64,000 bases of DNA. It comes from a virus. Taxonomy: Duplodnaviria > Heunggongvirae > Uroviricota > Caudoviricetes. The notes under the pieces were generated by a model. The model saw only the letters and a program-made list of their open reading frames with translations. It did no database searches and was not told the DNA's origin. Of this stretch, positions 1 through 44,150 are shown piece by piece. Position 1 is the stretch's first letter. Every line of letters starts with the position of its first letter. Made by a program: the position numbers and the translations under genes. Location of the stretch: the IMG/VR virus record IMGVR_UViG_3300045988_154997, positions 1-64,000 of that record; one strand, written 5' to 3'.

Positions 1-581
1 ATCGTTCTGCCTATAACGATATTCGCGACTGGCAGCGCCGTGAGAAAGAAGCTGACAAAAAAGAAAAATCAACCACCGACTGGGATGACGTGGTTTTTGA
101 GGTCGATTTGCTGAAGTCTCAGGAAATAAACCTGGATTATATCCTTGGACTGATTTTCGAACACAACAGACAAAATAAAGGCAAGGGCGAAATGATCGAA
201 GAGGTCAAACGCTTAATTCGTTCAAGCCTGGGGAACCGGGCGAAAGAGGGCCTGGTGGTCGATTTTATTCAGCAAACGAACCTGGATGATTTACCAGACA
301 AAGCCAGTATCATTGAGGCATTCTTTACGTTTGCTAAACGCGAACAGCAACGTGAAGCAGAAGCATTGATAAAAGAAGAAAATCTCAATGAAGATGCAGC
401 AAAACGCTATATTCGCACGTCTTTAAAACGCGAATACGCCACCGAAAATGGCACAGAATTAAACGAGACATTACCAAAACTTAGTCCGTTAAACCCGCAA
501 TATAAAACGAAAAAACAGACCGTTTTCCAGAAAATCGTCACGTTTATTGAAAAGTTCAAAGGAGTAGGTGGGCAGATATAG
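1..581 (+). CDS. hsdR: Type I restriction enzyme R subunit (HsdR), C-terminal fragment; 5' partial, ORF open from window start
   Basis: Reading frame open from nt 3 to the stop at 579-581 (ORF track begins at a GTG at 90). Tail sequence ...[28 protein letters not shown]...[17 protein letters not shown]...[14 protein letters not shown] resembles the C-terminal helical domain of type I R subunits as I recall it; no search run. Confidence 0.45.
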
Positions 582-639
582 TGTATTAATCTGAACCAGA
601 TCTGGCAGATATCTGTGCAAATTGCAGATAGCTGTCAGA

Positions 640-1116
640 TCAAGCCATCGTAGGGATGTCTGTATCCACTTTGAACTCAGGTACACCAACGAACTCTTTA
701 ACCTTCATCTGATAGCCAGTTCTGTCAGTCTTGATCGTTTCCTGCTTGCCCTCGATAAACTGCTCACGCCACTCGTCGCGACGGGAATCTGGCATAATCA
801 GCAGAACGTTAGTCATGTCCGTGACCTTCCTCCAGTACTCGGCCCAAATATTCTGTTTCACCCATTCCAGATCGACTTTATCCAACCAACCTCGATTTAA
901 ACGTGAGCGATCTTCATCTGGTCGATGGTTTAGTCTCAGCAGGCGATTAATCATGTTGTGGCGTTCGTCGCCATAAACGAAGTCGTGTACCTGATACATG
1001 AAGGCGATCTCTTTCTCGCACTCGGCCACGATTTCGTGGATGACATTCATTTCCTGACGATAGTCGATAGCCGTGTTTGAGCTGGCATCGTCGATGATGG
1101 AAAGGGCTGTATTCAT
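640..1116 (-). CDS. hypothetical protein
   Basis: 158-aa ORF, no motif recognised. Confidence 0.5.
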   Translation of the reverse strand: MNTALSIIDDASSNTAIDYRQEMNVIHEIVAECEKEIAFMYQVHDFVYGDERHNMINRLLRLNHRPDEDRSRLNRGWLDKVDLEWVKQNIWAEYWRKVTDMTNVLLIMPDSRRDEWREQFIEGKQETIKTDRTGYQMKVKEFVGVPEFKVDTDIPTMA

Positions 1117-1257
1117 AATTACACCATTAAATAATTTGTTTTCTGATTGGTGTAATTATCGCAAACTTGAAAAGGCATAAAAGCTGCATTCATAGGCGTT
1201 ACAGCAGATTTAAGGCGTAAAAATGGAGGCTGTCGCCCCCTGTCGACTGGTGCTGTA

Positions 1258-1824
1258 TTAGAGTGCGTATTGCGTTTTGTGCGGCTGCTTATTCAAGTCA
1301 TGGCGATGCGTGAGCTCCCGCATCATGTCTTCAAGGCGACTCTTTGTGTCGTCGAGCTGGTCGGCCATTGCACCTAAAAGCTGGCGAACGGCCATCGGAT
1401 CGTCGCTGTTTAGTGATGGCATTTTATAACCTGCTTTAGAAGACATAAGGTTGATTGCAGACATCAACATCGTTAGAGAGGATTTAAGCCCGGCAATTTC
1501 ACGATCTTTGCTGGCAATAATCGTCTCACTTTTGTTGCCGTCATCAGTTCCTTGAGTCTCGCTCACCATATCCAAAGTCGCTTGCAACTTATCAGCTCTC
1601 TCTTTTTCAGCAAGGTAATGAACACCGAAATGGTGTGCCAAAGCTACAATCTGAGTTGGCTCTTCAAAGGTGGAATTAAAATTAAGTATTGTAAACAGTC
1701 TCTCAAATATGGAAACGTCTTCTATTCCTCGAAGAATGGCTAACATTTTGACAAGTTCATTAGCATCCATTTCTTCGAATAGGGCGTTTTGTTCATCAGC
1801 TATTGCTTTGCATTTCTCGCACAT
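1258..1824 (-). CDS. hypothetical protein
   Basis: 188-aa ORF; start preceded by the shared initiation sequence (AAGGAAAACAC-ATG on coding strand) and the upstream palindrome 'TAAGAAAACAACTTGTTTAA' (1841..1860). Confidence 0.6.
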   Translation of the reverse strand: MCEKCKAIADEQNALFEEMDANELVKMLAILRGIEDVSIFERLFTILNFNSTFEEPTQIVALAHHFGVHYLAEKERADKLQATLDMVSETQGTDDGNKSETIIASKDREIAGLKSSLTMLMSAINLMSSKAGYKMPSLNSDDPMAVRQLLGAMADQLDDTKSRLEDMMRELTHRHDLNKQPHKTQYAL

Positions 1825-2121
1825 GTGTTTTCCTTAATGCTTAAACAAGTTGTTTTCTTATTGGCTTTATTGTGATGTGGCATATAAGGGGAGCAAGCTA
1901 AACGTAAAGGTGCAAACTCTCTATTTCGGTCAACGAAACACAAGGGCCAAATGGCCCTTGTCATTAACACTTTGCTTTACGAACTAACGGATAAGCGAAG
2001 TAGATCGCCAAACCAATGAGGACGCCATCAGAAATGACAGACATCATCTTTCCCGTAAAATCCACCAACACCGCCATCACCAGAAGAGCAATGACGATCA
2101 CAAGCCGGAATCTCTCAAGCA

Positions 2122-2547
2122 TTAGAGATAAGCATCCAGTGACAACTGAAGCGCCTGGGCGATCTTTTTCAGTGCCTGCTCTTCTTGTTCACCAATGCCA
2201 TCCTGATCGGCAATATCAAGGCACAGACACAGAACATCGACCGCCTCTGGAGTGCCCGCAATATCAGCCAGCTCACGCATAGCCTGCGCATTCGCAGAAC
2301 GAGGGGACGCTTCGTAACGAGCACGGATATTGGCGCTCATTTGGGCAATTTCACCAGCAAACGGAGAAAACGCAGGCAGAGCTGCAATTGTCTTCTCAAG
2401 AATGGCAATTTCTTTTGCGTCACATGTGCCGTCGGCATAGGAGATCATGTACGCGCCCCACACGGTGGCCTCAACCGCATCACGGTTCTCCATTTTTTTG
2501 ACTTCGATAACAGCTTTACGAGTTTTCTTTTTGAAGAAACCTAACAT
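2122..2547 (-). CDS. hypothetical protein (possibly TerB-like helical fold, weak)
   Basis: 141-aa ORF with shared initiation sequence and upstream palindrome at 2570..2587; acidic helical composition only. Confidence 0.5.
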   Translation of the reverse strand: MLGFFKKKTRKAVIEVKKMENRDAVEATVWGAYMISYADGTCDAKEIAILEKTIAALPAFSPFAGEIAQMSANIRARYEASPRSANAQAMRELADIAGTPEAVDVLCLCLDIADQDGIGEQEEQALKKIAQALQLSLDAYL

Positions 2548-2640
2548 GTGTTTTCCTTTTGTTATTTGTCAAAACAAGTTGTTTTTTAGTTTCATAAATT
2601 GCTTACGCAAAGATGGTCAATGCATATGCACTAACAGCCG

Positions 2641-2829
2641 TCAGAAATAACCAAGTACCGAACCGACTGGAAAAACAAAAATCCCAACTACACGAGCCAG
2701 AGTCATGCCAGCCTGAAACTTGAGATCACCTGAGCAAACGAGTTTTATAATGTTGGATACCCAACCGGCGGCCATGAGAGCCAGAATTGCCAGCCAAATT
2801 TTCCCAAAGTGATTTGAAAGCCAGTTCAT
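2641..2829 (-). CDS. small hydrophobic membrane protein
   Basis: 62-aa ORF, two hydrophobic segments (LAILALMAAGWV, VGIFVFPVGSVLGYF). Confidence 0.4.
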   Translation of the reverse strand: MNWLSNHFGKIWLAILALMAAGWVSNIIKLVCSGDLKFQAGMTLARVVGIFVFPVGSVLGYF

Positions 2830-3077
2830 ACAACCACCTTAGTCACAACATGATCCTGAGTAACTGGATGAACTTGAGGTATCGCATCCACCGTCATCCC
2901 ATCCAGAGTGACAGGACGCTCTACTGGAGTGGTGGTAATTGTCGTCGACGGAGGTGTGGTGATGGATGAATCCGGCATCAAAAGGCTCTGGCCGGCTGGA
3001 ACGGCTACCGTCGCCAGTGAAACTATAATGAGAACGTAGGCCATTGGTTTCAGCCTCTTTCTTTGAAAATTTTCCAT
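2826..3077 (-). CDS. small signal-peptide / Thr-Pro-rich protein (overlaps the alternative-frame ORF 2839..3333)
   Basis: 83-aa ORF; AAGGA RBS before ATG at 3077 and a second RBS (GAGG) before internal ATG; hydrophobic N-terminus MAYVLIIVSLATVAVPA. Confidence 0.35.
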   Translation of the reverse strand: MENFQRKRLKPMAYVLIIVSLATVAVPAGQSLLMPDSSITTPPSTTITTTPVERPVTLDGMTVDAIPQVHPVTQDHVVTKVVV

Positions 3078-3333
3078 TCGAACTGTCCTTGTTGTTTTTC
3101 TCCTTCACTAAAGGCCGTGCATTTTTCGCTTGGTGTGAAGAACCAGAGGTAACAATCGCCCCCACGTTCGCAACAACTGACGCTTGCTTATCTAAACGTT
3201 CATTCAGCAACCGAACGGTAGTCTCCAGTTCATCAAGACGTGACAGAACACGACCGCTAAATAATTCGGCCAAAATTTGACGTAGTGAACGAGGACGTTT
3301 AGTTGCAGAAGTGAAATAGGTTTGACGTGCCAT
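2839..3333 (-). CDS. hypothetical protein (C-terminal half overlaps 2826..3077 in another frame; one of the two is probably not real over the overlap)
   Basis: 164-aa ORF with GGAG RBS 5 nt before ATG at 3333; C-terminal part is Ser/His/Cys-rich and looks like an out-of-frame read. Confidence 0.35.
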   Translation of the reverse strand: MARQTYFTSATKRPRSLRQILAELFSGRVLSRLDELETTVRLLNERLDKQASVVANVGAIVTSGSSHQAKNARPLVKEKNNKDSSNGKFSKKEAETNGLRSHYSFTGDGSRSSRPEPFDAGFIHHHTSVDDNYHHSSRASCHSGWDDGGCDTSSSSSYSGSCCD

Positions 3334-3478
3334 GTGGACTCCATCCAGTGTCAGAAAGAGTTGCGGCTGGCGATCGCCAGCCGCCTTTCTCGTTCCATCC
3401 TGGAACTGTGTCTTACCGACACATTGTCATCCTGACGCTGATAAGATACATGATTTAATATGATAGGTAAACACTTAC

Positions 3479-4072
3479 TTACCACTTGTTGTAAATAAAA
3501 CCAATGTCTTTCTTGTGAGGCGTATCGGCTGCGGAAAAAGCTGCGATCTTCGCGAGTCGATCACATATTTCATTTTCACGATGCCCGGCGTGACCTTTAA
3601 CCCACTTCCAGCGAACATTATGTCGACTTGCGTCCTCATCCAGACGTTTCCACAGATCAACATTCTTTACCGGTTTTTTATCAGAAGTCATCCATCCATT
3701 ACGTTTCCACCATTTCATCCACTGTGTCATGCCGTTTTTCAGATACTGGCTATCAGAGTGCAAAATAACGTTGCATGGATATTTCAAACGCTCCAGCCCG
3801 ATAAGTGCCCCCATCATCTCCATGCGGTTATTGGTGGTGCTATGAAAACCATCTGAGAACTCGCGTTCCTCACCACGATACTGGAGAACTATACCGTAAC
3901 CGCCCGGGCCACCCGGATTTTTAAGGCAAGAGCCATCACTGTAGATTTTTACGGTTTTAAGCTGGGGATTGAACTCTACGACAGGCGTTGTGGGATTGGT
4001 GCGGGGAGAATTTTTGTTTTTGGCTTTTTTGCGAGTTTTTGCTTGCGATCGGGATGGTGTCTTCGTCGTCAT
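3479..4072 (-). CDS. rnhA: Ribonuclease H (RnhA-like)
   Basis: Core [17 protein letters not shown]...[11 protein letters not shown]...HSDSQY...KPVKNVDLW...[17 protein letters not shown] aligns closely with E. coli RNase HI; start moved to ATG at 4072 (AGGAG RBS) rather than the ORF-track start at 4126. Confidence 0.8.
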
Positions 4073-4656
4073 ATAAACTCCTGAATCAAGCGCCGCGCCG
4101 ATTTTTTTCCTCGCGCGTGCGCACACGCGTGCGTGTTAATAATTATTAAAATAAACAAATTACTTCCCAGAACAGGTTTTTATAAACCTGAACTGAACGA
4201 ACGAAGTGAGTGAAGTTCACCTCGAACGAAGTGAGAGGTTGTCTTTTCAGGTAATACTCTCCCAGGGAGGTGAGTATAAAAATCCCTCACCAACCTGGTC
4301 CTTTCATAACCTGAAAAGTTATGGTCTAAGTCTACTGCCAGCTTAGACTTGGGAAGTTATGGATGACAGCACCCCAGAACCGAGATCTTCCCACACTTTA
4401 TGAAGGGGAGTACTGGATTCAACCTCTCGAAACACCCCAGACTCGACAATCATAAAGTGACCCTTGTCTCCGCTCACTTTGGTTCCCCCTTCCCCGACAC
4501 CTAAACGGCACCGGTTCTACGCTGGTAGTGAGCTTTTTTAAACCTGACGCCAGTGACGCTTACCTCCACCCATCAGGTCGAGTCTCCAGTCTACGACTGG
4601 AAACTATCAGATCTTAGCACTTACAATTCATCTTATGAATAGTTTGTACTTATCTA

Positions 4657-4911
4657 TCATTTCGATTGATTATTTTCTCGACCATGTAGTTGAACATTCA
4701 AGGCAAACACCTCATTGATCAACTCACCTAAAAGCTGTTCAACAAGTTCGCGATGCTCGCCAAGATGCAAGCACTTAATTGCCCATTCGTACAAGTTGAA
4801 AGCCTGCTCACGATCTTTCATCATTTCACGAGCCTGGGCCAGAAAATCGCTCTCTACGAGCGCAACGACATTAGTCGGGTATGACATGTTGGTTTCCTTA
4901 AAGTGGTTCAT
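4657..4911 (-). CDS. hypothetical protein
   Basis: 84-aa ORF. Confidence 0.45.
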   Translation of the reverse strand: MNHFKETNMSYPTNVVALVESDFLAQAREMMKDREQAFNLYEWAIKCLHLGEHRELVEQLLGELINEVFALNVQLHGRENNQSK

Positions 4912-4992
4912 AAAATCGATTTTAAAGCGTCTGGGAAGGGGTTCTAGTGGATTCTGTAGTGATGTTCAGGTCTGGAGTCTCTGATACAAAAC

Positions 4993-5051
4993 AGCCTGCT
5001 TCCGTATAATAATAATTAATATGTAGTTATTTATATATACAGAAGCAGGCT
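4993..5051 (-). terminator. long-loop hairpin element (arms CCTGCTTC[C/T]GTATA, about 27-nt AT-rich loop) followed by a T-run on the minus strand; copy 1 of 2
   Basis: 16-bp inverted arms 4993..5008 and 5036..5051 with one mismatch; lies just 3' of the methyltransferase gene stop; near-identical copy at 53798..53852. Confidence 0.45.
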
Positions 5052-5072
5052 AATTACAGACGCCAGAACAAA

Positions 5073-5666
5073 CTAAGCAGCCTTCTTTGATGGTCTTTTT
5101 TTCCTGATCACATTCGCAGGATCATACCCTCCCAGACTTTTCATGACGTCCAAAGGGATCTTGCTTATAGAGTGCCCAGCGTCCTGACAGAATCCTCGAA
5201 AAACAACGAGCATACTGCCACCTGGGTTGATGTTTACTTCTACCTGACCCAGATTGACGTCAGGCTCGACAAACGCTACGCGGCCACCAGACAGAATAAT
5301 CGTCTCATTCGCACACTCTGTTGCACGCTCATACCACTTTGTATCTAGGGATTGAGGAATTAGCATCACTGTTGTAACTCCGCGAGCCTGCTCACGTATA
5401 GCCGCATCAATCCAGGGGGAGATTTTGGAGTAGGGTGGATTGAGGAAGGCAATTGTACCTGGCTGTCCCCATTCAGATTTCAAAGCATCACGCTCAACGC
5501 CTATGAAATTAGGCAGCTTTGCATTGTCCTTGTTGCAGGCAACGTCAACATCAAATGTCACTCCAAGATAACGTTGAATGGCAGAAAACAGCCAGTCAGG
5601 TGTTCTCCAGAGGTCACGAAGAGAGTTGTCGCGCTTTCGCTGTTTGATTTTTTCGGCTGCAATCAT
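5073..5666 (-). CDS. DNA N6-adenine methyltransferase (phage Dam-like)
   Basis: FLNPPYS catalytic motif (NPPY) and DVACNKDNAKLPNF region typical of phage N6-adenine MTases. Confidence 0.8.
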   Translation of the reverse strand: MIAAEKIKQRKRDNSLRDLWRTPDWLFSAIQRYLGVTFDVDVACNKDNAKLPNFIGVERDALKSEWGQPGTIAFLNPPYSKISPWIDAAIREQARGVTTVMLIPQSLDTKWYERATECANETIILSGGRVAFVEPDVNLGQVEVNINPGGSMLVVFRGFCQDAGHSISKIPLDVMKSLGGYDPANVIRKKRPSKKAA

Positions 5667-5676
5667 CTTCTTTCTC

Positions 5677-5697
5677 GATAGGTAAGTAAATACCTAT
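5677..5697. promoter_or_regulatory. recurrent roughly 21-bp palindromic element 'GATAGGTAAGTAAATACCTAT' (representative copy, 10 nt upstream of the methyltransferase start codon)
   Basis: Same element found by eye at about 3468, 10516, 15233, 19918, 23419, 28892, 35407, 41429, 45064, 47555, 53691, 59922. Confidence 0.4.
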
Positions 5698-5724
5698 TTT
5701 TGCATTTGATTTTATGTCTGGCAA

Positions 5725-5777
5725 TCAAATAAAACGCGCCAGAAATGCAAACGAGAAGCTCTCTGGCGCGTTTTTGT
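5725..5777. terminator. hairpin terminator (arms ACGCGCCAG / CTGGCGCGT) with T-runs on both sides; bidirectional
   Basis: aaaACGCGCCAGa...tCTGGCGCGTttttg read directly; downstream of the 5850..6659 gene. Confidence 0.5.
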
Positions 5778-5849
5778 GGTGCTGGGTATGTGATTGGCTT
5801 ACCCAGCACTATAAAGCTCTCTATGGGCTTTATTTTCAGTAGGGGAACG

Positions 5850-6659
5850 TCATCCAATAGTGTACTCCGCGACAAACTTCTTAACGATCGGTGATTCTTC
5901 GTTCAATGTTAGATTTCCACCGTCTCTAACGGCAATTCCTGTCGCTGGAAATACAGCCATCATTTGCCCAGCCTGAGTTGACGCAGTGTTAAGCGGATAC
6001 GGTTTTTCTGGATTGCTCATTAAAGCAATCTTAATACTATTACTTGTAGCCTTCTTTTCTGTGAGAAGGTGTCTCATGGAAATTACCGTGTAAACACTAA
6101 TATCTGGACCTCCGCTAAACCAATTAAGAAGGTTTAATATCTTATCCTTTGCTTTGACAGGCGCGTTATCGTAAGCGTCTAAGAAAATATCTTTTTCTAA
6201 GCCCGCTTTATTGAAAAACGAATCATCTTTATCACTTAAAGTAAAACGAGGACCTCTTGCAGTACGAGCTTTTTTATTTGTATTGCTATCATTTGACTGT
6301 TGAACTTTTAATTCATCATTAACCTCAACACACTCTTCAACCTCAATAAATCCCAATTGTTCTGGCTCGTTTTCGGCAGCTTCAACACTTTCAGCGTTAA
6401 TTACGTTTATAGGCTCATGCGCTAACTCCAACTCATTTAAAGCAGAGCTGAAATCACCTGCTTTTTCTTCATTGAACAGTTCTTCGGCAACATCATCAGA
6501 ACTCATGGCTACGCCAGCATCTAGGCCGAGCAGCAGATCGTCAATATCATCAGTATTTTCAACCTGTGCAGCTTTTTTTACTGGTTCATCAAGTGATTGC
6601 AACATGGCTGTCAGCTCGTCCAGATCATCATTTGTCATTACATTTTCAACCGAACTCAT
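5850..6659 (-). CDS. hypothetical acidic protein
   Basis: 269-aa ORF, strongly acidic N-terminal half. Confidence 0.5.
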   Translation of the reverse strand: MSSVENVMTNDDLDELTAMLQSLDEPVKKAAQVENTDDIDDLLLGLDAGVAMSSDDVAEELFNEEKAGDFSSALNELELAHEPINVINAESVEAAENEPEQLGFIEVEECVEVNDELKVQQSNDSNTNKKARTARGPRFTLSDKDDSFFNKAGLEKDIFLDAYDNAPVKAKDKILNLLNWFSGGPDISVYTVISMRHLLTEKKATSNSIKIALMSNPEKPYPLNTASTQAGQMMAVFPATGIAVRDGGNLTLNEESPIVKKFVAEYTIG

Positions 6660-6780
6660 GTAAGTCTCCTTCTGTTTGGTTACATTTGCGTTTCGATGGC
6701 TACATTTTGACTAAACCTATCAGGCGGAAAAGTATTAAATACAGGCAGGAAATGATTGAAAGGCGACTGTTCTTTAAAAG

Positions 6781-6820
6781 AAAGCCTACTTTAAACTTTT
6801 TAAAGTAGGCTTTTGTTTTA
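6781..6820. terminator. hairpin terminator (AAAGCCTACTTTAAA...TAAAGTAGGCTTT + TTTTGTTTT)
   Basis: Perfect 13-15 bp stem followed by T-run on plus strand and CTTTT on minus strand; immediately 3' of the exonuclease gene. Confidence 0.5.
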
Positions 6821-7375
6821 CACAATTTCAGAGGGTAATTTAAAAAATCCGTACTTATTACGTGCCTTAAAGAAGCATTGCATCATTAAGTTTGTGTCAT
6901 ATAAGGCACTATGTGCTTTGGCATGATCGTATATAAAGCCAAGAGAGAAGGCCAACTCTTCAAGGCGGGGACGTTTACCGTCTTCTGTGGCCCACAATCC
7001 CGATAACATAGTATCTATAACAGGAACTTCTGGCAGTCTTACTCCATACCCTGAAAACTCGTGTCGAATAAATGGTATATCAAATGCTTCGCCGTTATGA
7101 GCAACCCACACACTACATGCCCCCATATAAGCGCCAATTTCGCTGGCATGATTTGACAACAAAGGTTCAGCTGCGAGCTGTTCCAATGAAATGCCATGAA
7201 CGGCTTGAGCTTTCGGATCTATGTTTCTGCGAGGGTTAAAACGCATCTCCAGACTATCAACATGTCTCTGTGTCTCCAGTTCATAGCGGGTAATTGCGAT
7301 TTCAATAATTTTATGACCAGCAAGGAAATCCAGTCCCGTAGACTCGATATCGATGCCTGCAACAATCGTTGTCAT
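6818..7375 (-). CDS. DnaQ-like (DEDDh) 3'-5' exonuclease, epsilon-subunit-like
   Basis: Exo I motif GIDIESTGLD, Exo II HNGEAFDIPF, Exo III HSALYDT. Confidence 0.75.
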   Translation of the reverse strand: MTTIVAGIDIESTGLDFLAGHKIIEIAITRYELETQRHVDSLEMRFNPRRNIDPKAQAVHGISLEQLAAEPLLSNHASEIGAYMGACSVWVAHNGEAFDIPFIRHEFSGYGVRLPEVPVIDTMLSGLWATEDGKRPRLEELAFSLGFIYDHAKAHSALYDTNLMMQCFFKARNKYGFFKLPSEIV

Positions 7376-7384
7376 CAGAACTCC

Positions 7385-7804
7385 TTACAACTTCTTAGCG
7401 CCCTTAAGTAGTGCGCTACGTACAAATTGAGCCGCTTTTTTCAAAGTTTCTTCACTGGTTTCACAGACAATCGGATCTTTCCACTTACCTGACACAGTGT
7501 TGAGAATATTGATTTGGTTGCTATCCAGACAAACAGAGATATAAAGCACCGTGCCACCAGCCAGCATCAAATGCATAGGAAACAGAGGCTTTTTACTGCC
7601 TTCACTGAACTGAGACATGGCGATGTTAATGGCTTCACCTACTTGTGCGCCAACAAGCCCCTGCGCAGTTTCGAATATGGCACGAATAGCCAGACGAGCC
7701 TCTCGATCGCTCATAAGCGACCGGGAATGTTCGTCCGCTACACGAATCAAAGCCTCTGTTGTTTTCCGATCCAGTTCATCTTCAAGCAACATTTCACTAA
7801 ACAT
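7385..7804 (-). CDS. hypothetical protein
   Basis: 139-aa ORF. Confidence 0.5.
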   Translation of the reverse strand: MFSEMLLEDELDRKTTEALIRVADEHSRSLMSDREARLAIRAIFETAQGLVGAQVGEAINIAMSQFSEGSKKPLFPMHLMLAGGTVLYISVCLDSNQINILNTVSGKWKDPIVCETSEETLKKAAQFVRSALLKGAKKL

Positions 7805-7865
7805 TTTTTATCCTTAACCCATTTTGAGAGTTTTATTGTCGCAATGTCGAAGAGGCGAACAATTT

Positions 7866-8510
7866 CTAATGAACGGTCACTCGGCCACAGAACCGGTTTT
7901 CTATCTTTTCTACAGCGTTATCTAGCATTCTCATCACTGATCTGGCTCTTGCTTCAACCGTGCGATACCGGTTGGAAACGACGAAGGTTTGCAGATCTCC
8001 CCTTTGCGGATGCAGGTGAATTTTTGTCAGTTCCCCGCACATCAACGCATCAATACGAGCGACATACAGACGGTCTAATGATGCTCGTTGTGATCGCAAG
8101 TAATCTCGCTCTGAGAGAGCGACCCCCGGGCGTAAGCCAGCAATGGCGTTAAAGTTTGAAATAGCAGTTTTGTGGCAAAACTTTTCGATATCGAGGGCTA
8201 ACTCAATACACCGATCTTCATTTGTATGGCCGACCAAATCCAACGTGTAGGCCATAACATCAGCAGGTGTGCGATCGATAACAAAGCCTTCAACACCACG
8301 CGTAAGTAGCTCTATATGCTTTGCTATTTCCATTTGAATCTGAAGCCGCTCATATAGAGGCATAGAATCACCTACTCGAACACCGAGGCGGCTCATCAAA
8401 CTTCCGACACCAGCATCCACGTAAGGGATTCCGTAATGTTTGTCTATATATTTAGCCAGGGTTGTTTTCCCACTGCCCTGAGCACCAGTGATCCCAATCC
8501 GGTAATCCAT
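7866..8510 (-). CDS. P-loop nucleotide kinase (possible dNMP kinase)
   Basis: Walker A GITGAQGSGKTTLA at N-terminus; sits in the nucleotide-metabolism block, stop overlaps DHFR start. Confidence 0.5.
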   Translation of the reverse strand: MDYRIGITGAQGSGKTTLAKYIDKHYGIPYVDAGVGSLMSRLGVRVGDSMPLYERLQIQMEIAKHIELLTRGVEGFVIDRTPADVMAYTLDLVGHTNEDRCIELALDIEKFCHKTAISNFNAIAGLRPGVALSERDYLRSQRASLDRLYVARIDALMCGELTKIHLHPQRGDLQTFVVSNRYRTVEARARSVMRMLDNAVEKIENRFCGRVTVH

Positions 8511-8986
8511 TACGACCTTCTGTATACGATCTGCGAAAAGCCAGGCTCTTCCTCGCTGGCTCGTTGGGTATAAGCTGTTTCAACAGGCACAAAGCCTAAG
8601 TTACGCATCATGCTTGCCGGGAAGAATGCATCGGCGTTTGGTACATCAACGCCGATGTGGGAGAGCCAAATCTCTTCAACATGCGGCATGAATAGCGAGT
8701 AAATTTGTTCCCCGCCAATCACCCACACAGGCTCTGGTAATCGCAACACATCATCCACACCAGCAGGGTAGAATCCATTTGGTACAAAGCCATGAGAGCG
8801 CGTCAAAACGAGGTTATGACGCTCTGGAAGAGGGCGTTTGAGACTTTCCATCGTTTTACGCCCCATAACGACAGTGGCGTTTTTGGTGAGTCTCTTAAAT
8901 AGCTTCAGATCGGTAGAACAACGCCAGGGGAGTTCATTCGCTATGCCGATCTCATAGTTACGGCCAACAGCAGCGATCATCTTCAT
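8510..8986 (-). CDS. folA: Dihydrofolate reductase
   Basis: MIAAVGRNYEIG...LPW...DLKLFKRLT...VVMGRKTMESL...PLPERHNLVLTR aligns with E. coli FolA. Confidence 0.85.
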   Translation of the reverse strand: MKMIAAVGRNYEIGIANELPWRCSTDLKLFKRLTKNATVVMGRKTMESLKRPLPERHNLVLTRSHGFVPNGFYPAGVDDVLRLPEPVWVIGGEQIYSLFMPHVEEIWLSHIGVDVPNADAFFPASMMRNLGFVPVETAYTQRASEEEPGFSQIVYRRS

Positions 8987-9396
8987 TTGCTCACCTCATA
9001 GATGACCGGTCGATGGTGAGAGTCGGCTAAAGCGGCACGGAGTCGAGGATCGTGCACCAGCGCAGCGATAAGCAGATCGCCTTTATGCTCCGCTAATGTG
9101 CGCTTAATATGCTTCTCATAACTGGTGCCATTTGGTACGAGATGAAGCCAGTCATAATCAACGCCAAAATCTTTCAGCCATCGTTTAGTTGGCGCTTCAA
9201 GAGTTTCAGAGCGGCTACTGATAAGCACCACTTCAGCCCCTGAGCGAGCAAAACCACGCAACATACGGCTGGTGGGGAAAATGAGTTCATCACCGGCAAT
9301 GAGCTGGCCTGCATCCGCGTCAGATACTGATTTACGATGGCTGGCATTTGCCAGCACACCTTCAATTTCGCATAAGACATACATACCTCTTGCCAT
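8983..9396 (-). CDS. hypothetical protein (possible hydrolase/nucleotidase; not supported by catalytic motifs)
   Basis: ORF-track start 9444 overlaps the thyA 3' end; ATG at 9396 gives stop/start overlap TGA-T-ATG with thyA. N-terminal VLCEIEGVL is HAD-motif-like but has Glu where HAD enzymes have Asp. Confidence 0.4.
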   Translation of the reverse strand: MARGMYVLCEIEGVLANASHRKSVSDADAGQLIAGDELIFPTSRMLRGFARSGAEVVLISSRSETLEAPTKRWLKDFGVDYDWLHLVPNGTSYEKHIKRTLAEHKGDLLIAALVHDPRLRAALADSHHRPVIYEVSK

Positions 9397-9397
9397 A

Positions 9398-10528
9398 TCA
9401 CACCGCCACTGGAACCTTGATCCACGGTAGAGGGTCATAGCCAAGAATTAAAACTTCGTCCCATTTGAAATCATCCAACTCTGACCATTCATGAGGGAAA
9501 ATAACGACCGGATCTGAATGCTCTGGAGCCTGTCGTTTCATTAGCTCACACACACCTTCCATGTGGTTGTTGTACAAATGCACGTCAAAGCCAAAATGCA
9601 CAAATGCACCGGCCATGTGACCCGTAATCTTCGCGAGAAAATGAGTGAGAATGCCATAGCCAGCAATATTGAATGGCATACCAACAAAAGTGTCTACGCT
9701 ACGCTGTACGAGGCAGGAGTTGAGGATGCGTTTGGGGATTCCAAGTTCATCCAGTTCAGCTTCAGTAACACTGCCGTCCATCTCCAGATCGTATAGCATC
9801 TTGGTGTAGATAGACTCGTAACCGAGGCGACTGTGTTGAAGACCAATGTCAGTTGCCATCGTTAAACGGGTTTCAAAATCCAGCTCACGACTCCACAAAG
9901 AGAAGACAAAGTGGCAAGGTGGCAGTTTCATATCCTCAAGCTCGCCTACGTTCCATGCGTTAAGCATGATGCGACGATCGGTAGGGTTCGTGCGCAGTGT
10001 ATCGACAATACGCTGTAGCTGATCGATTTCACGGGACAGCACTACGCGATCTTCACTGATACCCAGGTATCCCTCGACTTTGTACCCGCGTTCACGGAAA
10101 GTAGCGATCTTGCTCAGATATTCACTATGGCTCACGATGCGGGTATCTTCCCATCGACGCCACTGCTTACCGTAAACCGGCCCCAAATCGCCATTCTCAT
10201 CGGCCCATGCATCCCAAATCTTAACGCCGTTATCCTTGAGAAATTGGATGTTGCCCGTGCCTTTCAGATACCACTCAAGTTCGACAAGCAGTGGCTTAAG
10301 ATTTACCGCCTTTCCAGAAATAAGCGGCACAGTCCCACCAGTAAGCATGTAGTAAGAGGGAACGTAGCAGGTGCTTAAAGTACCAGTGCCTGTGCGATCA
10401 TCAGCCTGCACGCCGCTTTTAAGCACCGTCTCAATAACTTTTGCATACGATGCGTTTGTTACCTGACCGTTCGTATGCTCACGATTCAAAAGGAGTGACA
10501 CAAAAACCTCACAAAGATAAGTAATCAC
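9398..10528 (-). CDS. thyA: Thymidylate synthase (ThyA)
   Basis: DRTGTGTLS, WADENGDLGPVYGKQWRRW and C-terminal IKVPVAV match ThyA; ORF begins with GTG at 10528, true start uncertain. Confidence 0.85.
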   Translation of the reverse strand: MITYLCEVFVSLLLNREHTNGQVTNASYAKVIETVLKSGVQADDRTGTGTLSTCYVPSYYMLTGGTVPLISGKAVNLKPLLVELEWYLKGTGNIQFLKDNGVKIWDAWADENGDLGPVYGKQWRRWEDTRIVSHSEYLSKIATFRERGYKVEGYLGISEDRVVLSREIDQLQRIVDTLRTNPTDRRIMLNAWNVGELEDMKLPPCHFVFSLWSRELDFETRLTMATDIGLQHSRLGYESIYTKMLYDLEMDGSVTEAELDELGIPKRILNSCLVQRSVDTFVGMPFNIAGYGILTHFLAKITGHMAGAFVHFGFDVHLYNNHMEGVCELMKRQAPEHSDPVVIFPHEWSELDDFKWDEVLILGYDPLPWIKVPVAV

Positions 10529-10578
10529 TTATTCATTAAGTGAGTTTACATTTATTGAGGAAACAAGGCCAGATAGAT

Positions 10579-10605
10579 AAAAAAAATGGTGGCCTATGGC
10601 CACCA
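10579..10605 (-). terminator. Rho-independent terminator (TGGTGGCC-tat-GGCCACCA followed by 8 T on minus strand)
   Basis: Read directly; 3' of the 10674..11543 gene. Confidence 0.65.
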
Positions 10606-10673
10606 AAAACGAATAGTTGCTTCAGGAATTTAACGCGCCAACACAATATACATAGATAGATAACTACCTACAA

Positions 10674-11543
10674 TTATTTTTTGATCATTCCGTACATTGC
10701 TGAGGCTTTAGCTTGCTCAACAAAGGAGGATAAATCGACATCACTATAGGTTGGAGACTTCAGAATCTTTCCATCGGAAATTCGAAAACCGATCATCTTA
10801 TCGGTACCATCAGCATGGCGAAATCCCAGGTCTGAAGAGTCGTATTTGCAGTTGGCCACAGCCTGGCGACGTTCCTCGACATCAGCAGGCCATAATTTTG
10901 TCATGTTAGACCGATGAATTTCGCCAACCAGCTCGACTACATTGATGCCGAGGAAATCAGCCAGTCGATAGGTCATCATGCACGCCACATAGATTTTGTT
11001 CATGACACGGCGCAGTTCCTGAATCAGCTCAGAATCCTTAACAGTCTTGTTCTCAAGTTTATCTGCCAGCTCTTCGAGCATACATGACGCCTCACGAGCT
11101 TCCTGAAATGGCATTGCCATATCATCGAAAACAGTGTTACCAGGCACAAAAATTGTCTGCATAAAGCGATCAATGCTCTGTTCCTGCGTGTAATAGGTCA
11201 TGCCGGTAGAAATACCACCTTTGATGGCGACCATCGTACCAACACCAACGTATAAAAAGTCGGCCATTGCATCCAGCAGTTGCTCAATATCCCCATTCAT
11301 TGCGGCTGGAATACCTTCCACTACAGCTTCTTCATGAATCAGGCTTGCACGGAGACGAAGCAGCTCTGGTGTCGGCATAACGCGTCTCGGATGCTGGAAG
11401 AGTTCATGAAACTGATCGACCATCTTGTAAATACTTTCAGTGGCTACACCATGGCCTTCATGCAACTCATATGGTTCTGGCTTAAATCCAATGAGTCGAT
11501 CGGTGGCAAGTTTCAGGTGGTCAGTCAGTTTGGTAAAGTTCAT
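10674..11543 (-). CDS. hypothetical protein; possibly all-alpha NTP pyrophosphohydrolase (MazG/dimeric dUTPase-like)
   Basis: 289-aa ORF; acidic helical motifs HEEAVVEG...DIEQLLDAMADFLYV are suggestive only. Confidence 0.35.
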   Translation of the reverse strand: MNFTKLTDHLKLATDRLIGFKPEPYELHEGHGVATESIYKMVDQFHELFQHPRRVMPTPELLRLRASLIHEEAVVEGIPAAMNGDIEQLLDAMADFLYVGVGTMVAIKGGISTGMTYYTQEQSIDRFMQTIFVPGNTVFDDMAMPFQEAREASCMLEELADKLENKTVKDSELIQELRRVMNKIYVACMMTYRLADFLGINVVELVGEIHRSNMTKLWPADVEERRQAVANCKYDSSDLGFRHADGTDKMIGFRISDGKILKSPTYSDVDLSSFVEQAKASAMYGMIKK

Positions 11544-11620
11544 GCTAGTTTTGTTCCTTCTTAATTCTTGTGATCCATTGTGGCCCAGCGTTGCCAGGCC
11601 ACATAATGCTTTGTATCGGT

Positions 11621-12763
11621 TTACAGGTCTGCAAACTGGCTTAGAGAAGCCTTATCCACGGTAGAATCGATCTGACCTACCAGATATGTGCTTTGCTCTG
11701 CCTCTTGTGGTGCAATTTGCAGTGTGTCGGTTAACAACCACTTGTTCATCCAGACCAGCGGATCAGTGGTAACTTCTGGAAATAAAGCCTTCAGGCCAAG
11801 ACGATTCATAGCCAGATTGGTTCGGTATTTTACATAGGTCTTCAGAATATCCGCGTTTAAACCAATCATCGAACCGTCTTTGAAGAGATAGTCTGCCCAG
11901 TTCATTTCTTGTTCGGCGACTGATTTCATGGTGTCGTAAATGACGTTTTCTTCATCAGCAGCAATCTCTTTCCACAATAAACCTTCGCGACCGGTACGCA
12001 TGAAGCGGATCATGCGTTCAGTTCCTTCGCAATGCAGAGCTTCATCACGGGCAATAAAGCGCATAATTTTGGTGTTACCCTCAAGCAACTTCCGTTCGCC
12101 AAAGGCAAACGTACATGCAAAACTTACATAGAAACGGATCGCCTCAAGCGCATTAATGGACACCAACGTGCGGAAAAGCTGACGGTGCAAAGGGTATGGC
12201 TCCCAGCCATATTCATTTACGTACAGACGTTCAAACTCTTTCTCACCTAACGACTGGCGCTCGCAGGTCATCCCATAAAGCCTGTCATATTCAGCAGAGA
12301 TACTGATCGCTCGGTTGATGATTTCTTCATCCGTAACAATACCGTCAAAAACAATGCTCGGATCGTCCACCATGCCACGAATAATGTGGGTGTAGCTGCG
12401 GCTATGGATAGTCTCAGAGAAAGACCATGTTTCAACCCACGTTTCCAGTTCAGGAATAGAGATAAGCGGCAGCAACGTTGCATTTGGGCTACGTCCCTGA
12501 ACTGAATCGAGTAACGTTTGATAACGGAGATTGCTCAGAAAAATGTGACGTTCGTGGTCCCGCAGCTTCGTGTTGAAGTCGATACGATCGCTCGAAATAT
12601 CAACTTCTTCCGGCCGCCAGAAGAAAGACAATTGACGTTCAATCAACTTTTCAAAATCACGGTATTTTTGCTGATCGTAACGTGCCACGTTGACAGATTG
12701 TCCGAGGAACATAGGCTCTTTGGTTGCATCATTAGCACCCAAACGGAACGTTGAATATGACAT
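11621..12763 (-). CDS. nrdB: Ribonucleotide reductase class Ia beta subunit (NrdB)
   Basis: [34 protein letters not shown]... near-identical in pattern to E. coli NrdB N-terminus; start set at ATG 12763 (shared initiation sequence), not 12799. Confidence 0.9.
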
Positions 12764-12790
12764 GTGTTTTTCCTTTTGCTTTTTGATATG

Positions 12791-12826
12791 TTTAAACAAG
12801 TTGTTATCTTATTTGTTTAAACAAGG
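12791..12826. promoter_or_regulatory. recurrent palindrome 'TTTAAACAAGTTGTTATCTTA' plus adjacent partial copy, upstream of nrdB (representative of 'TAAGAAAACAAnTTGTTTAA' family)
   Basis: Same element upstream of start codons at 1824, 2547, 24214, 52895, 56907 (read by eye). Confidence 0.4.
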
Positions 12827-12829
12827 CTT

Positions 12830-12863
12830 ACAAATCAAAGAGAAGGTGGGGATATACCCCACC
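12830..12863 (-). terminator. hairpin (GGTGGGG-atata-CCCCACC) with T-rich tail between nrdA and nrdB; terminator/attenuator
   Basis: Read directly, immediately 3' of nrdA stop. Confidence 0.45.
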
Positions 12864-12868
12864 ATATG

Positions 12869-15184: not shown

Positions 15185-15192
15185 GTATCACC

Positions 15193-15223
15193 AAATAAAG
15201 AGGGCCACTAAATATAGTGGCCC
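15193..15223 (-). terminator. hairpin (GGGCCACTA-aata-TAGTGGCCC) with T-rich tail on minus strand
   Basis: Read directly; 3' of the RuvC-like gene, 5' of nrdA. Confidence 0.45.
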
Positions 15224-15257
15224 ATGTTAATAGATAAGCACTTACCTATCAATGAAA

Positions 15258-15827
15258 TCAAATGAGAGACTTAAGAACATCGCGCACCTGGCGGAACTGA
15301 TCTGTTTGCATACCGGTATGGATGGCAGCCACCGCATCAGCCAAATGTTCGTTTTTGTTCACGAGAACATCCTGTCCAGATTGCTTACGACGCAGCCACG
15401 GTGCTTTAGGGTGTTTTTTCGTAGCCCACTGGATAATCTCTTCTTTCGATGTAGTAAGTTTATTGCCGACAAAATGCTTGATTTCGTTTGGAGTAACCTG
15501 GATCAATGGCTTATCCACACACGCAAGTACACCGATACAAATACCGTAAGACGTCTGCGAACGAGAGTTTTGGCTCCCAACCGGTAGCTCACAAAAAACC
15601 ATATTTGCCTTATCAATGATTGGCTTCGCAACACGCCATATTTCACTGGCGCGGCGCAGATCGTCACTGTTCACACGAACGGTCTTTTTGTTACTCCCCG
15701 CTTTAGTCTCAACAAGAGTAAGGCCGTGAATCTCAAGTTCGTCCGTCTCAAGGTCTAAAGTGCCCACAGCAAGCCCAAAGTTGCTCATTGAGGGATCAAC
15801 ACCAACTACGCTGATTTTTTTACTCAT
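15258..15827 (-). CDS. RuvC-like Holliday junction resolvase
   Basis: N-terminal VVGVDPSMSNFGLAVG and C-terminal HLADAVAAIHTG resemble RuvC catalytic and ADAxDALAIA motifs. Confidence 0.6.
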   Translation of the reverse strand: MSKKISVVGVDPSMSNFGLAVGTLDLETDELEIHGLTLVETKAGSNKKTVRVNSDDLRRASEIWRVAKPIIDKANMVFCELPVGSQNSRSQTSYGICIGVLACVDKPLIQVTPNEIKHFVGNKLTTSKEEIIQWATKKHPKAPWLRRKQSGQDVLVNKNEHLADAVAAIHTGMQTDQFRQVRDVLKSLI

Positions 15828-15836
15828 ATAGTCTCC

Positions 15837-19801: not shown

Positions 19802-20055
19802 GTGTTTTTCCTTTGTGGTTATTTTGATACAAATTCTAAGAGCAATGAGGAGGTAAACAACTATGCATAACGGTATGTTAGGAATGAAACGAGCGCCTTA
19901 ATATACAAAATTTATAAGTAAGTATATACCTATTTATCGTGGCGCAACTTTGCTTGTCTGTATGACTAAAAATAAGACAGGATCACTGTAGAACGCTATG
20001 AGAGCTATTTTGAGGGGGCGTAGATTCTATCTACGCCAATATACGATCTGGAGGG

Positions 20056-21001: not shown

Positions 21002-21021
21002 TGAATGACAAAGGTGTCCAC

Positions 21022-44146: not shown

Positions 44147-44150
44147 AATT

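Follow-up and report, generated by a model that had tools for sequence, protein, structure and literature searches.

Phage repressors that act from dispersed operators are already known, through the C1 operators of P1 and the stoperators of L5, and the regulon proposed here would be a new example of this kind. C1 is the immunity repressor of the phage-plasmid P1, with many operators placed round a genome of ~100 kb, one of which is carried by the repressor gene. The P1 operators are asymmetric 17-bp sites, some of them paired, C1 itself consists of 283 aa, and late genes are reached indirectly via Lpa. The Lpa-dependent late promoters of P1 combine a dyad near -22 with a -10 element and require the activator. 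KorB of RK2 is a ParB-family protein with 13 bp sites. The gp71-type stoperators of L5 and Bxb1 are 13–14 bp sites that lack dyad symmetry, are bound by a monomer and lie in one orientation with respect to transcription (PMC6550527).

The window analysed here, a stretch of 64,000 nt from the IMG/VR record IMGVR_UViG_3300045988_154997, has a coding share of 89% and represents an SSU5/pHCM2-type phage-plasmid with 98.7% identity to Escherichia phage Cyrano (pLF82). Clinical Enterobacteriaceae commonly harbour SSU5-like phage-plasmids, some of which carry resistance genes. The window contains a recurrent palindrome whose occurrences are genuine. This 22-bp dyad probably serves as operator for a dimeric repressor that the phage-plasmid itself encodes, with an XRE-type regulator at 38112–38498 as its most probable binder; we infer the sign of regulation as well as which protein binds. 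A literature search with the motif strings and for SSU5/pHCM2 regulation returned no account of this regulon or of lysis-lysogeny control. The mechanism itself would be conventional, while the operator motif and the candidate repressor together would give a testable map of the whole lytic regulon of ~28 transcription units.

A sequence-only reading had placed a palindrome of roughly 21 bp with a central N at 13 positions, every one of which holds a copy within a few bases. The palindrome stood but the central N did not, as the unit is a 22-bp dyad built from the arms RATARGTAAGT and ACTTACYTATY (11+11). The copies are listed below as putative operators with their scores, beside two predicted promoters; "new" marks those absent from the earlier list.

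3462–3483: putative operator, 23.8 bits; over the stop of the RNase H-like gene, 128 nt ahead of the next gene on the minus strand; orthologues at Cyrano 79650, SSU5 79903 and Kpn 16841
4637–4658: putative operator (new), 18.0 bits; orthologues at Cyrano 78476 and SSU5 78708
5677–5698: putative operator, 26.2 bits; 10 nt ahead of the start of Dam methylase (5666)
5724–5696, minus strand: predicted, conserved Dam promoter; -35 TTGCCA at 5724–5719, extended -10 TGcAAAAAT ending at 5696
10516–10537: putative operator, 19.8 bits; downstream of a terminator, 14 nt before the GTG start of ThyX
15229–15250: putative operator, 27.0 bits; interval between the RuvC stop and nrdA
15252–15224, minus strand: predicted nrdA promoter, TTGATA-17-TAACAT, its spacer filled by the copy at 15229–15250
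19913–19934: putative operator, 25.2 bits; 111 nt before sbcD
23419–23440: putative operator, 22.2 bits; abuts the annotated ATG of a small gene (CYRAN_60 homologue)
25372–25393: putative operator (new), 22.2 bits; past a terminator, 31 nt before a membrane-protein gene
28892–28913: putative operator, 23.4 bits; 83 nt before the gp32-like SSB gene
35403–35424: weak putative operator, 13.3 bits; 57 nt before cobS; orthologues at SSU5 45123 and Kpn 93367
36734–36755: intragenic copy in cobT (new), 15.9 bits
41424–41445: putative operator, 25.1 bits; between the glutaredoxin operon (minus strand) and the AbiGi-like gene (plus strand), which diverge from each other
45064–45085: putative operator, 26.0 bits; after the ligase operon and before the tRNA region
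47546–47567: weak copy, 14.5 bits, with only the half GATAGGTAAGC good; directly before a hypothetical gene; orthologues at Cyrano 35606 and Kpn 80737
48423–48444: putative operator (new), 19.0 bits; 40 nt before a hypothetical gene
53691–53712: putative operator, 25.6 bits; followed directly by the SD AGGTGA and then the ATG at 53679
59915–59936: putative operator, 22.7 bits; before the holin/lysis operon

The enrichment that the earlier reading had asked to be checked was borne out by motif search. A symmetric 22-bp PWM finds 16 sites in the window at ≥15 bits against 0.14 expected, and 25 at ≥12 bits against 0.7 expected, of which 20 are intergenic (binomial P = 3e-15). The half-site GATAGGTAAGT alone, with at most two mismatches, gives 31 matches in the window compared to 12.2 ± 3.3 in shuffles. 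In the enteric motif, the mirror symmetry of base frequencies reaches 3 positions past the 22 bp on either side, where weak symmetric flanks (aaw...wtt) lengthen the dyad to ~28 bp, and a TA step recurs every 4 bp of this 22–28 bp site. The two arms match the consensus independently, with arm pairing at 348 observed against 351 expected from the consensus, and show no compensatory covariation. Outright mismatches occur in 76 of 528 arm pairs, and G·U and A·C combinations are equal (52 vs. 52), hence there is no sense-strand bias. The site thus has the form of an XRE/CI-type dimer operator, symmetric as double-stranded DNA and with independent halves. The main family is AT-rich and lacks a T-run, and so does not have the GC-rich stem plus T-run of an intrinsic terminator; a true terminator-like hairpin surrounds only the low-scoring variants at 5014 and 53819.

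Orthologous positions in Cyrano, SSU5, Klebsiella pJN2-26 and Yersinia pMT1 carry the same motif. In a three-way comparison the element is 76% identical and its flanks 36% (P = 2e-7), with one row of this and of the promoter comparison affected by a Cyrano "CobS" site (45279) that lies off the true orthologue (~45262). The intragenic cobT copy is kept in all lineages examined (Cyrano 43931, SSU5 43660, Kpn 91931, pMT1 18496). In the complete Cyrano genome 27 of 29 sites are intergenic, and all lie ahead of lytic operons on the gene strand, both early and late; no site of ≥11 bits was found there at repA, parA, the toxin-antitoxin genes or the accessory block at 85–105 kb. Scans of Cyrano, SSU5 and pJN2-26 likewise place 20–30 intergenic sites genome-wide at early and late operons. 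Matches from a scan of viral contigs with the 18-mer core fall mostly on contigs of SSU5 size.

A distant but syntenic phage-plasmid of Acinetobacter carries 24 copies of a different palindrome, ATCAGTCAGTACTGACTGAT, with 0 expected. This differs from the enteric palindrome at the symmetric pairs 4/19, 5/18 and 8/15, and its copies occupy equivalent places: before the portal gene, after the major capsid gene (then followed by a hairpin), and before nrdB. The Acinetobacter XRE homologue has KRPNVLSMIKSG at the place of the enteric KNANNLSLIKSG. Motif and regulator therefore vary together, over two specificity groups only, as motif and repressor do between lineages of L5/Bxb1-type phages (PMC6550527). 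The pJN2-26 regulator has a slightly different helix (NPNILSLIKKGR) with an unchanged motif.

The candidate binding protein and its predicted control region are as follows.

38112–38498, plus strand: 128-aa XRE-type helix-turn-helix regulator, CYRAN_45 homologue
38038–38043 and 38060–38065: predicted -35 TTTACA and -10 TAATAT of the regulator promoter (TTTACA-16-TAATAT)
38063–38084: core-only variant (new), 6.8 bits; perfect 14-bp core GGTAAGCACTTACC at 38067–38080, outer flanks non-consensus

The core lies immediately downstream of the predicted -10, at about +1, and is a putative autoregulatory operator. Promoter and perfect core form the best-conserved block of the regulator upstream region in four lineages (E. 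coli, pHCM2, pJN2-26 and pMT1), where the chance expectation of such cores is ~6e-5. The recognition helix YKNxNNLSLIKSGKIPLP is invariant in 17 homologues with an overall identity of 55–79%. As both motif and helix are invariant, cross-immunity is predicted between elements of different genera. The AF2 model of the regulator has a pLDDT of ~87 over residues 11–80, and Foldseek gives target-normalised TM-scores of ~0.8 to 434 Cro, P22 c2 and C.AhdI with weak E-values; the model also resembles SPC32H Rep. Pfam HTH_19 scores 19.7 bits, below its cut-off of 30.2, and a PDB sequence search returned no matches to the regulator. The helix-turn-helix fold of the protein is thus found in its predicted structure. 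Published expression data for LF82 lysogens (PMC9928086) put the regulator 10-fold above background. Of the 14 Cyrano genes expressed there, 13 do not have the consensus element.

The regulator gene is convergent with an integrase gene and overlaps its 3' end. It occurs on 865 PLSDB plasmids, including S. Typhi pHCM2 and Y. pestis pMT1, and the integrase gene adjoins it in nearly all of the PLSDB matches listed. The family is essentially confined to contigs of ~100–116 kb. A distant homologue is carried by a Thauera plasmid, which is conjugative and added no information on the motif. SSU5 lacks exactly the block of integrase, regulator and small gene. Among the matches listed, plasmid relatives that are ~91–93% identical have an extra ~3 kb with the integrase at this locus and, where annotated, the same insert also holds the regulator. 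SSU5 has been reported as virulent (PMC5427195), which the loss of the regulator would explain.

Conserved -35- and -10-like hexamers are predicted beside or within many sites from consensus matches, and conserved sigma70-type elements adjoin several copies. These putative promoters, identified by consensus and conservation, do not have a constant geometry. At the Dam gene the element occupies -9 to +13, covering the predicted -10 and start site, with -35 and extended -10 conserved and the spacer diverged. At the portal gene, the gene starting at 53679 and the regulator gene, the element lies downstream of the predicted -10; a conserved TATCAT/TATGAT hexamer stands ~10–13 nt upstream of the copy at 53691–53712. 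At four other promoters it lies upstream of a conserved extended -10, which starts at element position 29–31. A conserved extended -10, TGtAAGAAT, follows the copy at 48423–48444 by 4 nt, and at sbcD a conserved TGnCATAAT is found 8–9 nt downstream in SSU5 and Klebsiella (TATATT in E. coli). At holin a conserved TGaTATAAA lies 16 nt downstream of the copy, which is 49 nt from the start by the window ORF call and 61 nt by the Cyrano annotation. A -35 or -10 at constant offset from the element was searched for and not found. Because the element precedes the -10 at some promoters and follows the start site at others, this geometry suits a repressor and not an activator. The short distances to start codons given in the sequence-only reading were confirmed for Dam (10 nt), the gene at 53679 (11 nt) and ThyX (14 nt), as was overlap with a stop codon (3479–3481). 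The "fixed position relative to RBSs" that it gave does not hold as a general rule. Distances to start codons run from 0 to ~130 nt.

An operator for a dimeric regulator was one of the options raised earlier, and it is favoured by the mirror symmetry, the independent arms, the variable -10/-35 geometry and the core at the XRE promoter. In the lysogenic plasmid state, repressor dimers would occupy ~25–30 sites genome-wide, ~20 of them within the window. Each site would overlie or abut a promoter of the host sigma70 type, often with an extended -10, heading a lytic operon, whether for replication, recombination or nucleotide metabolism or for head, tail or lysis functions. The part covered would vary with the promoter, from the -35 and spacer to the -10 and start site or the first ~25 transcribed bases, suggesting repression by occlusion or by a promoter-proximal roadblock. 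A few copies with no promoter nearby, in cobT and between a stop codon and a terminator, may be pure roadblocks. The weaker core-only site at about +1 of the regulator promoter would provide negative autoregulation.

The proposed regulon resembles that of P1 C1 in having dispersed operators before replication, recombination and methylase operons and a site at the regulator itself. It differs in that the site is a 22-bp dyad of plainly different sequence and not a 17-bp ATTGCTCTAATAAATTT-type site, that the candidate is a 128-aa XRE-type protein whereas C1 has 283 aa and is not XRE-type, and that sites are also found inside the head, tail and lysis clusters. It shares with the L5/Bxb1 stoperators a set of 20–30 sites in short intergenic spaces at early and late operons, many not obviously associated with promoters (PMC6550527), but the present element is a symmetric 22-bp dyad. 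The dyad operator, the five-helix helix-turn-helix candidate predicted by the fold model and the putative autoregulatory site are reminiscent of the CI/Cro proteins of 434, P22 and lambda. In contrast to the ~6 operators in one immunity region of these classical systems, there are ~28 dispersed and longer (22–28 bp) sites here, and the regulator has no LexA-like S24 cleavage domain. Several points count against this reading, among them the slightly different pJN2-26 helix with the same motif and the small number of specificity groups. The 28 good sites that SSU5 has despite the absence of the regulator would be expected only if the deletion is recent or the sites serve a double purpose, and direct control of structural-gene promoters by a repressor is unusual.

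The strongest competitor, itself unlikely, is that an activator binds the element, or that the element forms the core of a class of lytic promoters independent of a -35, served by a conserved factor also present in SSU5. The outer TATC followed by "at" would then form the -10, comparable to P1 Lpa-dependent late promoters or to MerR-type spacer binding. A TAnnnT hexamer does begin at element position 19 in 59% of 71 sites, and the 2 nt after the element complete TATCAT in ~59% of enteric sites. In the Acinetobacter palindrome the right arm, read in the gene direction, decays systematically to TATACT. An activator would also fit the lack of a conserved -35 at a fixed offset, the depletion of sigma70-like promoters in the window (15 found vs. 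29.5 expected), the retention of all sites in SSU5 without the XRE regulator, and the hairpins that come after several elements and begin where the start of such a promoter would fall. However, the T at +2 has its mirror counterpart in an A of equal frequency at the opposite edge, and so belongs to the symmetric site. An Lpa-type geometry, with the dyad at about -22, fits 5–6 sites with a -10-like hexamer starting at position 19–22, and in a subset of sites the dyad centre would lie ~20 bp upstream of the start predicted from the right-edge TATCAT. The geometry fails at Dam, portal, the gene at 53679 and the four promoters with an extended -10 at 29–31, and the predicted start coincides with or precedes many of the copies. 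An SD 0–5 nt after the element, or a conserved -10/-35 upstream of it, is seen at Dam, portal, the 53679 gene, ThyX and the regulator, where an activator at -20 would yield transcripts without an SD. The conserved extended -10 lies 6–9 nt further downstream at four promoters and 19 nt further at holin, showing that the geometry is not fixed. Finally, no candidate activator, Lpa-like or other, was found among the annotations and the proteins tested against Pfam and PHROGs.

The Acinetobacter right-arm decay and the ~59% TATCAT also suggest that the element may be an integral part of the promoter. It is conceivable, if rather doubtful, that the dyad has both roles, being the obligatory core of a -35-independent promoter class that is clamped by the repressor in lysogeny. 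The outer arms would supply a -35-like TTGATA and a -10-like TATCAT, and the TA step every 4 bp would make the site deformable. Starts would fall inside the 5' arm of the next hairpin, such that one unit ends incoming transcripts and begins new ones. At nrdA the predicted start lies inside the 5' arm of the hairpin at 15223–15202 that comes next. Such a module would be common to hundreds of SSU5/pHCM2/pMT1-type plasmids, and the single repressor that clamps it would have kept its specificity unchanged from Escherichia to Yersinia. If true, this would be a symmetric "stoperator-promoter-terminator" cassette that modularises a whole phage genome.

A global regulator other than the XRE-type protein might bind the same sites, which is more doubtful again. 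The sites would form a network for silencing or partition, as KorB-OB does on RK2. The candidates considered are a FljA-like protein and the following.

Outside the window: ParB/KorB-like candidates, CYRAN_119/120 homologues
37648–37860: 70-aa gene divergent from the regulator

As with KorB-OB, a dozen or more identical palindromes are spread over the plasmid and variably placed with respect to promoters, and they would give co-ordinate silencing. In three lineages the ParB-like gene has a site 16 nt ahead of it, and SSU5 keeps the ParB-like and FljA-like genes along with its sites. However, the evidence found does not tie the ParB-like genes to the motif; they are not among the genes expressed in lysogens (PMC9928086) and are themselves behind the element. 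None of these candidates has a link to the motif as specific as the conserved core at the XRE promoter. The FljA-like protein was dropped. The 5'UTR of Salmonella fliC, a known target of FljA, has no similarity to the element, and the protein has no homology to the Acinetobacter Hfq-like protein, the one candidate compared.

An RNA-level element, with the hairpin acting as an RNase III site, translational operator or antitermination signal, is very improbable. Copies do lie near SDs and between cistrons, the palindrome would fold as an RNA hairpin, and these phage-plasmids encode a homologue of the RNA-binding repressor FljA. Conversely, the equality of G·U and A·C, pairing no better than the consensus predicts and the mismatched arm pairs do not point to selection on RNA structure, the symmetry reaches flanks that would not pair usefully, and several copies, being upstream of the predicted start site, would be left out of the transcript of the gene. 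The RNA processing or translational operator proposed earlier is not supported by the tests of strand bias and covariation or by an Rfam scan, in which no family overlapped the element. A promoter for a phage-encoded single-subunit RNA polymerase or alternative sigma, also suggested initially, would account for a self-contained conserved block of ~22 bp at many operon starts but is scarcely credible, since promoters are polar while the enteric element is mirror-symmetric, the distance to start codons varies, and the annotations of four related genomes contain neither a polymerase nor a sigma gene. Pfam and PHROGs detected none among the proteins tested, and on 20 unknown proteins they gave no activator either.

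Two further palindromes in the window are doubtful members of the family.

5014–5035: AT-rich palindrome forming part of the loop of a long terminator hairpin, CCTGCTTCTGTATA...TATACGGAAGCAGG followed by a T-run
53819–53840: second terminator-loop copy

Both score low and form a separate sub-family, and the same structure is found in SSU5 and Kpn.

The palindromic element dispersed through the window is a genuine regulatory site with strong conservation, and its copies most likely serve as the operators of the phage-plasmid's own XRE-type candidate repressor. A copy is present at 13/13 positions listed by the sequence-only reading. The central N proposed there is not part of the dyad, which consists of two 11-bp arms, RATARGTAAGT-ACTTACYTATY. 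The intergenic placement is borne out: with 89% of the window coding, 20 of 25 sites scoring ≥12 bits against a symmetric 22-bp PWM, itself refined on the window, fall between genes (P = 3e-15). Sixteen PWM sites reach ≥15 bits vs. 0.14 in shuffles, and the half-site with ≤2 mismatches is found 31 times vs. 12.2 expected. Further copies lie at 4637, 25372, 48423, and, intragenically, 36734. Conservation covers the 22 bp and a weak symmetric aaw/wtt flank, with nothing wider, and a TA step occurs at every fourth base of the motif (gaTAggTAagTActTAccTAtc).

Megablast assigns the window to Escherichia phage Cyrano (98.7% identity, reverse orientation), the phage-plasmid pLF82 carried by E. coli LF82; matches to SSU5-like elements from Salmonella and Klebsiella are at ~76%. 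Nearly all window genes lie on the minus strand and, compared with the Cyrano annotation, run from tail fibre and lysis genes to partition, replication, recombination, and nucleotide-metabolism genes. Complete Cyrano, SSU5, and Klebsiella pJN2-26, put together from annotated records, contain 29, 28, and 29 sites of ≥11 bits, with 27/29 intergenic in Cyrano. Y. pestis pMT1 carries dyad sites too. Sites head replication, recombination, and nucleotide-metabolism operons, with further sites ahead of genes for portal, tail, tail fibre, and holin, and also behind the major capsid gene. No site of ≥11 bits is associated with repA, parA, the toxin-antitoxin pairs, or the 85–105 kb accessory block of Cyrano. 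Orthologous site positions are kept in Cyrano, SSU5, and pJN2-26 even where flanks are unalignable, and three-way identity is 76% for the element vs. 36% for the adjoining 22 bp. One dyad within the cobT coding sequence (36734-36755), kept in E. coli, SSU5, pJN2-26, and pMT1, may serve as a roadblock or as a promoter/operator internal to the gene.

The candidate repressor and its neighbourhood comprise:
38112-38498, plus strand: CYRAN_45 homologue, annotated putative repressor (128 aa)
39596, minus strand: integrase start
39624-39642: near-consensus LexA (SOS) box ACTGTATAAGTAAACAGTA, ~28 nt upstream of the integrase start

The regulator matches Pfam HTH_19 below threshold. In its AlphaFold model, five helices form an N-terminal domain (pLDDT ~87) that superposes on 434 Cro, P22 c2, C.AhdI, and the SPC32H repressor. 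PLSDB holds homologues in 865 plasmids, with the integrase adjoining in nearly all matches listed, and protein-database homologues occur essentially only on contigs of 100–116 kb. The turn and recognition helix, YKNxNNLSLIKSGKIPLP, is invariant in 17 homologues of 55–79% overall identity. NANNISLIKSG is retained in a second Klebsiella lineage, whose motif is very similar. In A. baumannii plasmids of ~107 kb, syntenic with SSU5, the homologue is 48% identical and carries KRPNVLSMIKSG in place of this stretch. De novo k-mer counting on one of these plasmids found a different dyad, ATCAGTCAGTACTGACTGAT, 24 times vs. 0 expected. It retains the central AGTACT and the 4-bp rhythm and differs from the enteric dyad at symmetric position pairs 4/19, 5/18, and 8/15; such symmetric change in both arms is predicted by co-evolution with a dimeric protein. 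The Acinetobacter copies occupy equivalent places: 12 nt before the portal gene, before nrdB, and after the capsid gene, there followed by a hairpin.

When regions upstream of the regulator from E. coli, pHCM2, and pJN2-26 are aligned, the best-conserved block is TTTACA-16-TAATAT followed directly by GGTAAG(C/T)ACTTACC. pMT1 shares TTTACA-16-TAATAT, with AGTAAGCACTTACC as the core. The perfect 14-bp core at 38067-38080, one of two window matches to RGTAAGNNCTTACY, scores only 6.8 bits because its outer flanks are non-consensus in every lineage. Located at ~+1 of the regulator promoter, it is read as a putative low-affinity autoregulatory operator. The integrase gene is convergent with the regulator gene and overlaps its 3' end, and equivalent LexA boxes (TACTGTAT...ACAGTA) are found upstream of the integrase in pHCM2, pJN2-26, pMT1, and the Klebsiella lineage with NANNISLIKSG. 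An induction route is thereby suggested in which SOS-driven transcription from the integrase side runs convergently into the repressor gene.

In LF82 lysogens, CYRAN_45 transcription is 10-fold over the prophage background, and ciprofloxacin induces Cyrano (PMC9928086). When those expression data are combined with the site map, the consensus element lies upstream of 1 of the 14 Cyrano genes expressed ≥5-fold, 159 nt off. SSU5, a virion isolate described as virulent (PMC5427195), is without the block of integrase, regulator, and small divergent gene. At this position, plasmid relatives among the matches listed (closest 93% identical) are ~3 kb longer, the additional DNA containing the integrase and, where annotated, the regulator. 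The missing block fits loss of the lysogeny repressor, and the 28 good sites that persist in SSU5 count as neutral evidence only on the condition of a recent deletion.

Promoters were called by phylogenetic footprinting of sigma70-type elements and are all predictions; their offset from the dyad differs between sites. At Dam, a predicted -35 (TTGCYA) and extended -10 (TGnAAAAAT) are kept in Cyrano, SSU5, and pJN2-26 with a diverged spacer, and the window promoter is the same. As this predicted -10 ends inside the element, the element would span ~-9 to +13. Upstream of the element lie a predicted extended -10 (TGtTATTCT) at the portal gene and a TATCAT/TATGAT hexamer at the gene starting at 53679, both with SD and start codon directly after the element. 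At nrdA, the element is bracketed by a predicted TTGATA-17-TAACAT. Four predicted promoters (sbcD, ead, cobS, and the gene at 47600-48382) have a conserved -10-like hexamer 6–9 nt downstream of the element, with TGn in front of it in most sequences; the holin gene has a predicted one 19 nt downstream. Element-to-start distances of 0–16 nt accompany a predicted -10 upstream of or overlapping the element, and long distances a predicted -10 downstream. Activators require a fixed upstream position, whereas repressors tolerate a variable one; the varied predicted offsets suit a repressor. Sigma70 consensus matches at window positions 1-20000 number about half those in shuffled sequence (15 vs. 29.5 ± 6).

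That the dyad is instead an activator site or promoter core is unlikely. A TATCAT edge at 59% of sites favours it, as do SSU5 and the Acinetobacter right arm, which has lower conservation than the left one and in many copies shows the -10-like hexamer TATACT. However, this explanation fails at promoters with the SD directly after the element, and the T of the TATCAT edge has a mirror counterpart across the dyad. It is more doubtful still that another protein (ParB/KorB-like, FljA-like, or the 70-aa divergent gene product) binds the dyad, for which a site ahead of a ParB-like gene in three lineages speaks. A comparison with the Salmonella fliC leader found no link of the element to FljA. FljA, the Salmonella phase-1 flagellin repressor, has homologues annotated in SSU5 and pJN2-26 and in Cyrano:
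Cyrano 100780-101301, outside the window: full-length FljA homologue (Pfam Flag1_repress, 1e-80)

The sequence-only reading had also offered an RNA-level site. A hairpin function would be expected to produce arm covariation and a sense-strand G·U preference among mismatches, and neither is observed: G·U and A·C mismatches number 52 each, and complementary arm pairs 348 vs. 351 ± 7 with right arms shuffled among sites. As an Rfam scan also returned tRNAs only, action as an RNA element is very improbable. Base frequencies on the left and right sides mirror each other, flanks included, the pattern characteristic of a symmetric protein dimer that recognises two half-sites in double-stranded DNA. 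Mirror symmetry without covariation or strand bias further argues against an inherently polar promoter, and with sigma70-type elements at varied offsets, the suggested element-specific promoter for a phage polymerase or sigma is the least credible alternative. The mirror symmetry, independent arms, and variable predicted promoter geometry favour the remaining proposal, an operator for a dimeric regulator.

As an operator set, the dyads would function in the manner of the C1 operators of the phage-plasmid P1 and of the stoperators of L5, which are 20–30 sites over early and late operons (PMC6550527). L5 stoperators are asymmetric and oriented (PMC6550527), whereas the dyad is neither, and it is therefore not a stoperator in the strict sense. 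434 and P22 have the same type of protein and dyad. Systems of these kinds are already known; for the motif and regulon themselves, no description was found in the searchable literature.

Several copies (at nrdA, after the capsid gene, and before tailL) have a stop codon on one side and, on the other, a terminator-like hairpin abutting the next gene. Hairpins of this kind, and those of a separate repeat family, lie at:
Window 15202-15223: terminator-like hairpin at nrdA (15223-15202)
Cyrano 5470-5495 and 15555-15585: terminator-like hairpins
Window 4985-5060 and 53790-53860, minus strand: second repeat family, long hairpin with arms CCTGCTTCTGTATA / TATACGGAAGCAGG

The terminator-like hairpins start ~5 nt past some operator copies and finish only ~9–20 nt ahead of the next start codon, so expression of the downstream gene must pass through the hairpin or begin inside it. 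If the right-edge -10 of the element were used, the start site would fall inside the 5' arm, and such transcripts would escape the terminator that stops incoming ones. The low-scoring sites at 5014 and 53819 lie in the AT-rich loop of the long hairpin (CCTGCTTCTGTATA...TATACGGAAGCAGG and a T-run), which holds a degenerate copy of the dyad centre. This family also has 2–3 copies per genome in SSU5 and pJN2-26.

Other features of the window include:
20902-22116, plus strand: repA
41477-43581, plus strand: gene pair without Cyrano counterpart
43760-44317, minus strand: four-tRNA cluster (Ser-tga, Thr-tgt, Tyr-gta, Asn-gtt)

Twelve GTATGCTGTC iteron-like repeats (≤1 mismatch, 20900-22642) flank repA on both sides, an iteron replicon in the P1/IncFIB style. 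Copies of the Chi sequence GCTGGTGG number 10 in the window vs. 1.4 expected (e.g. 7554, 9268, 33040, 33194) and 25 vs. 2.4 in full Cyrano, on both strands. By comparison with the four tRNA genes here, three are annotated in Cyrano and Asn alone in SSU5. An AT-rich block spans ~40–44 kb (GC 0.37). The 41477-43581 pair opens with a gene for an AbiGi-like abortive-infection protein (Pfam 4.8e-25); the 403-aa product of the second gene gave no Pfam match and may be AbiGii-like. Beside the tRNA cluster, the pair looks like a defence island, and operator copy 41424 sits upstream of it.
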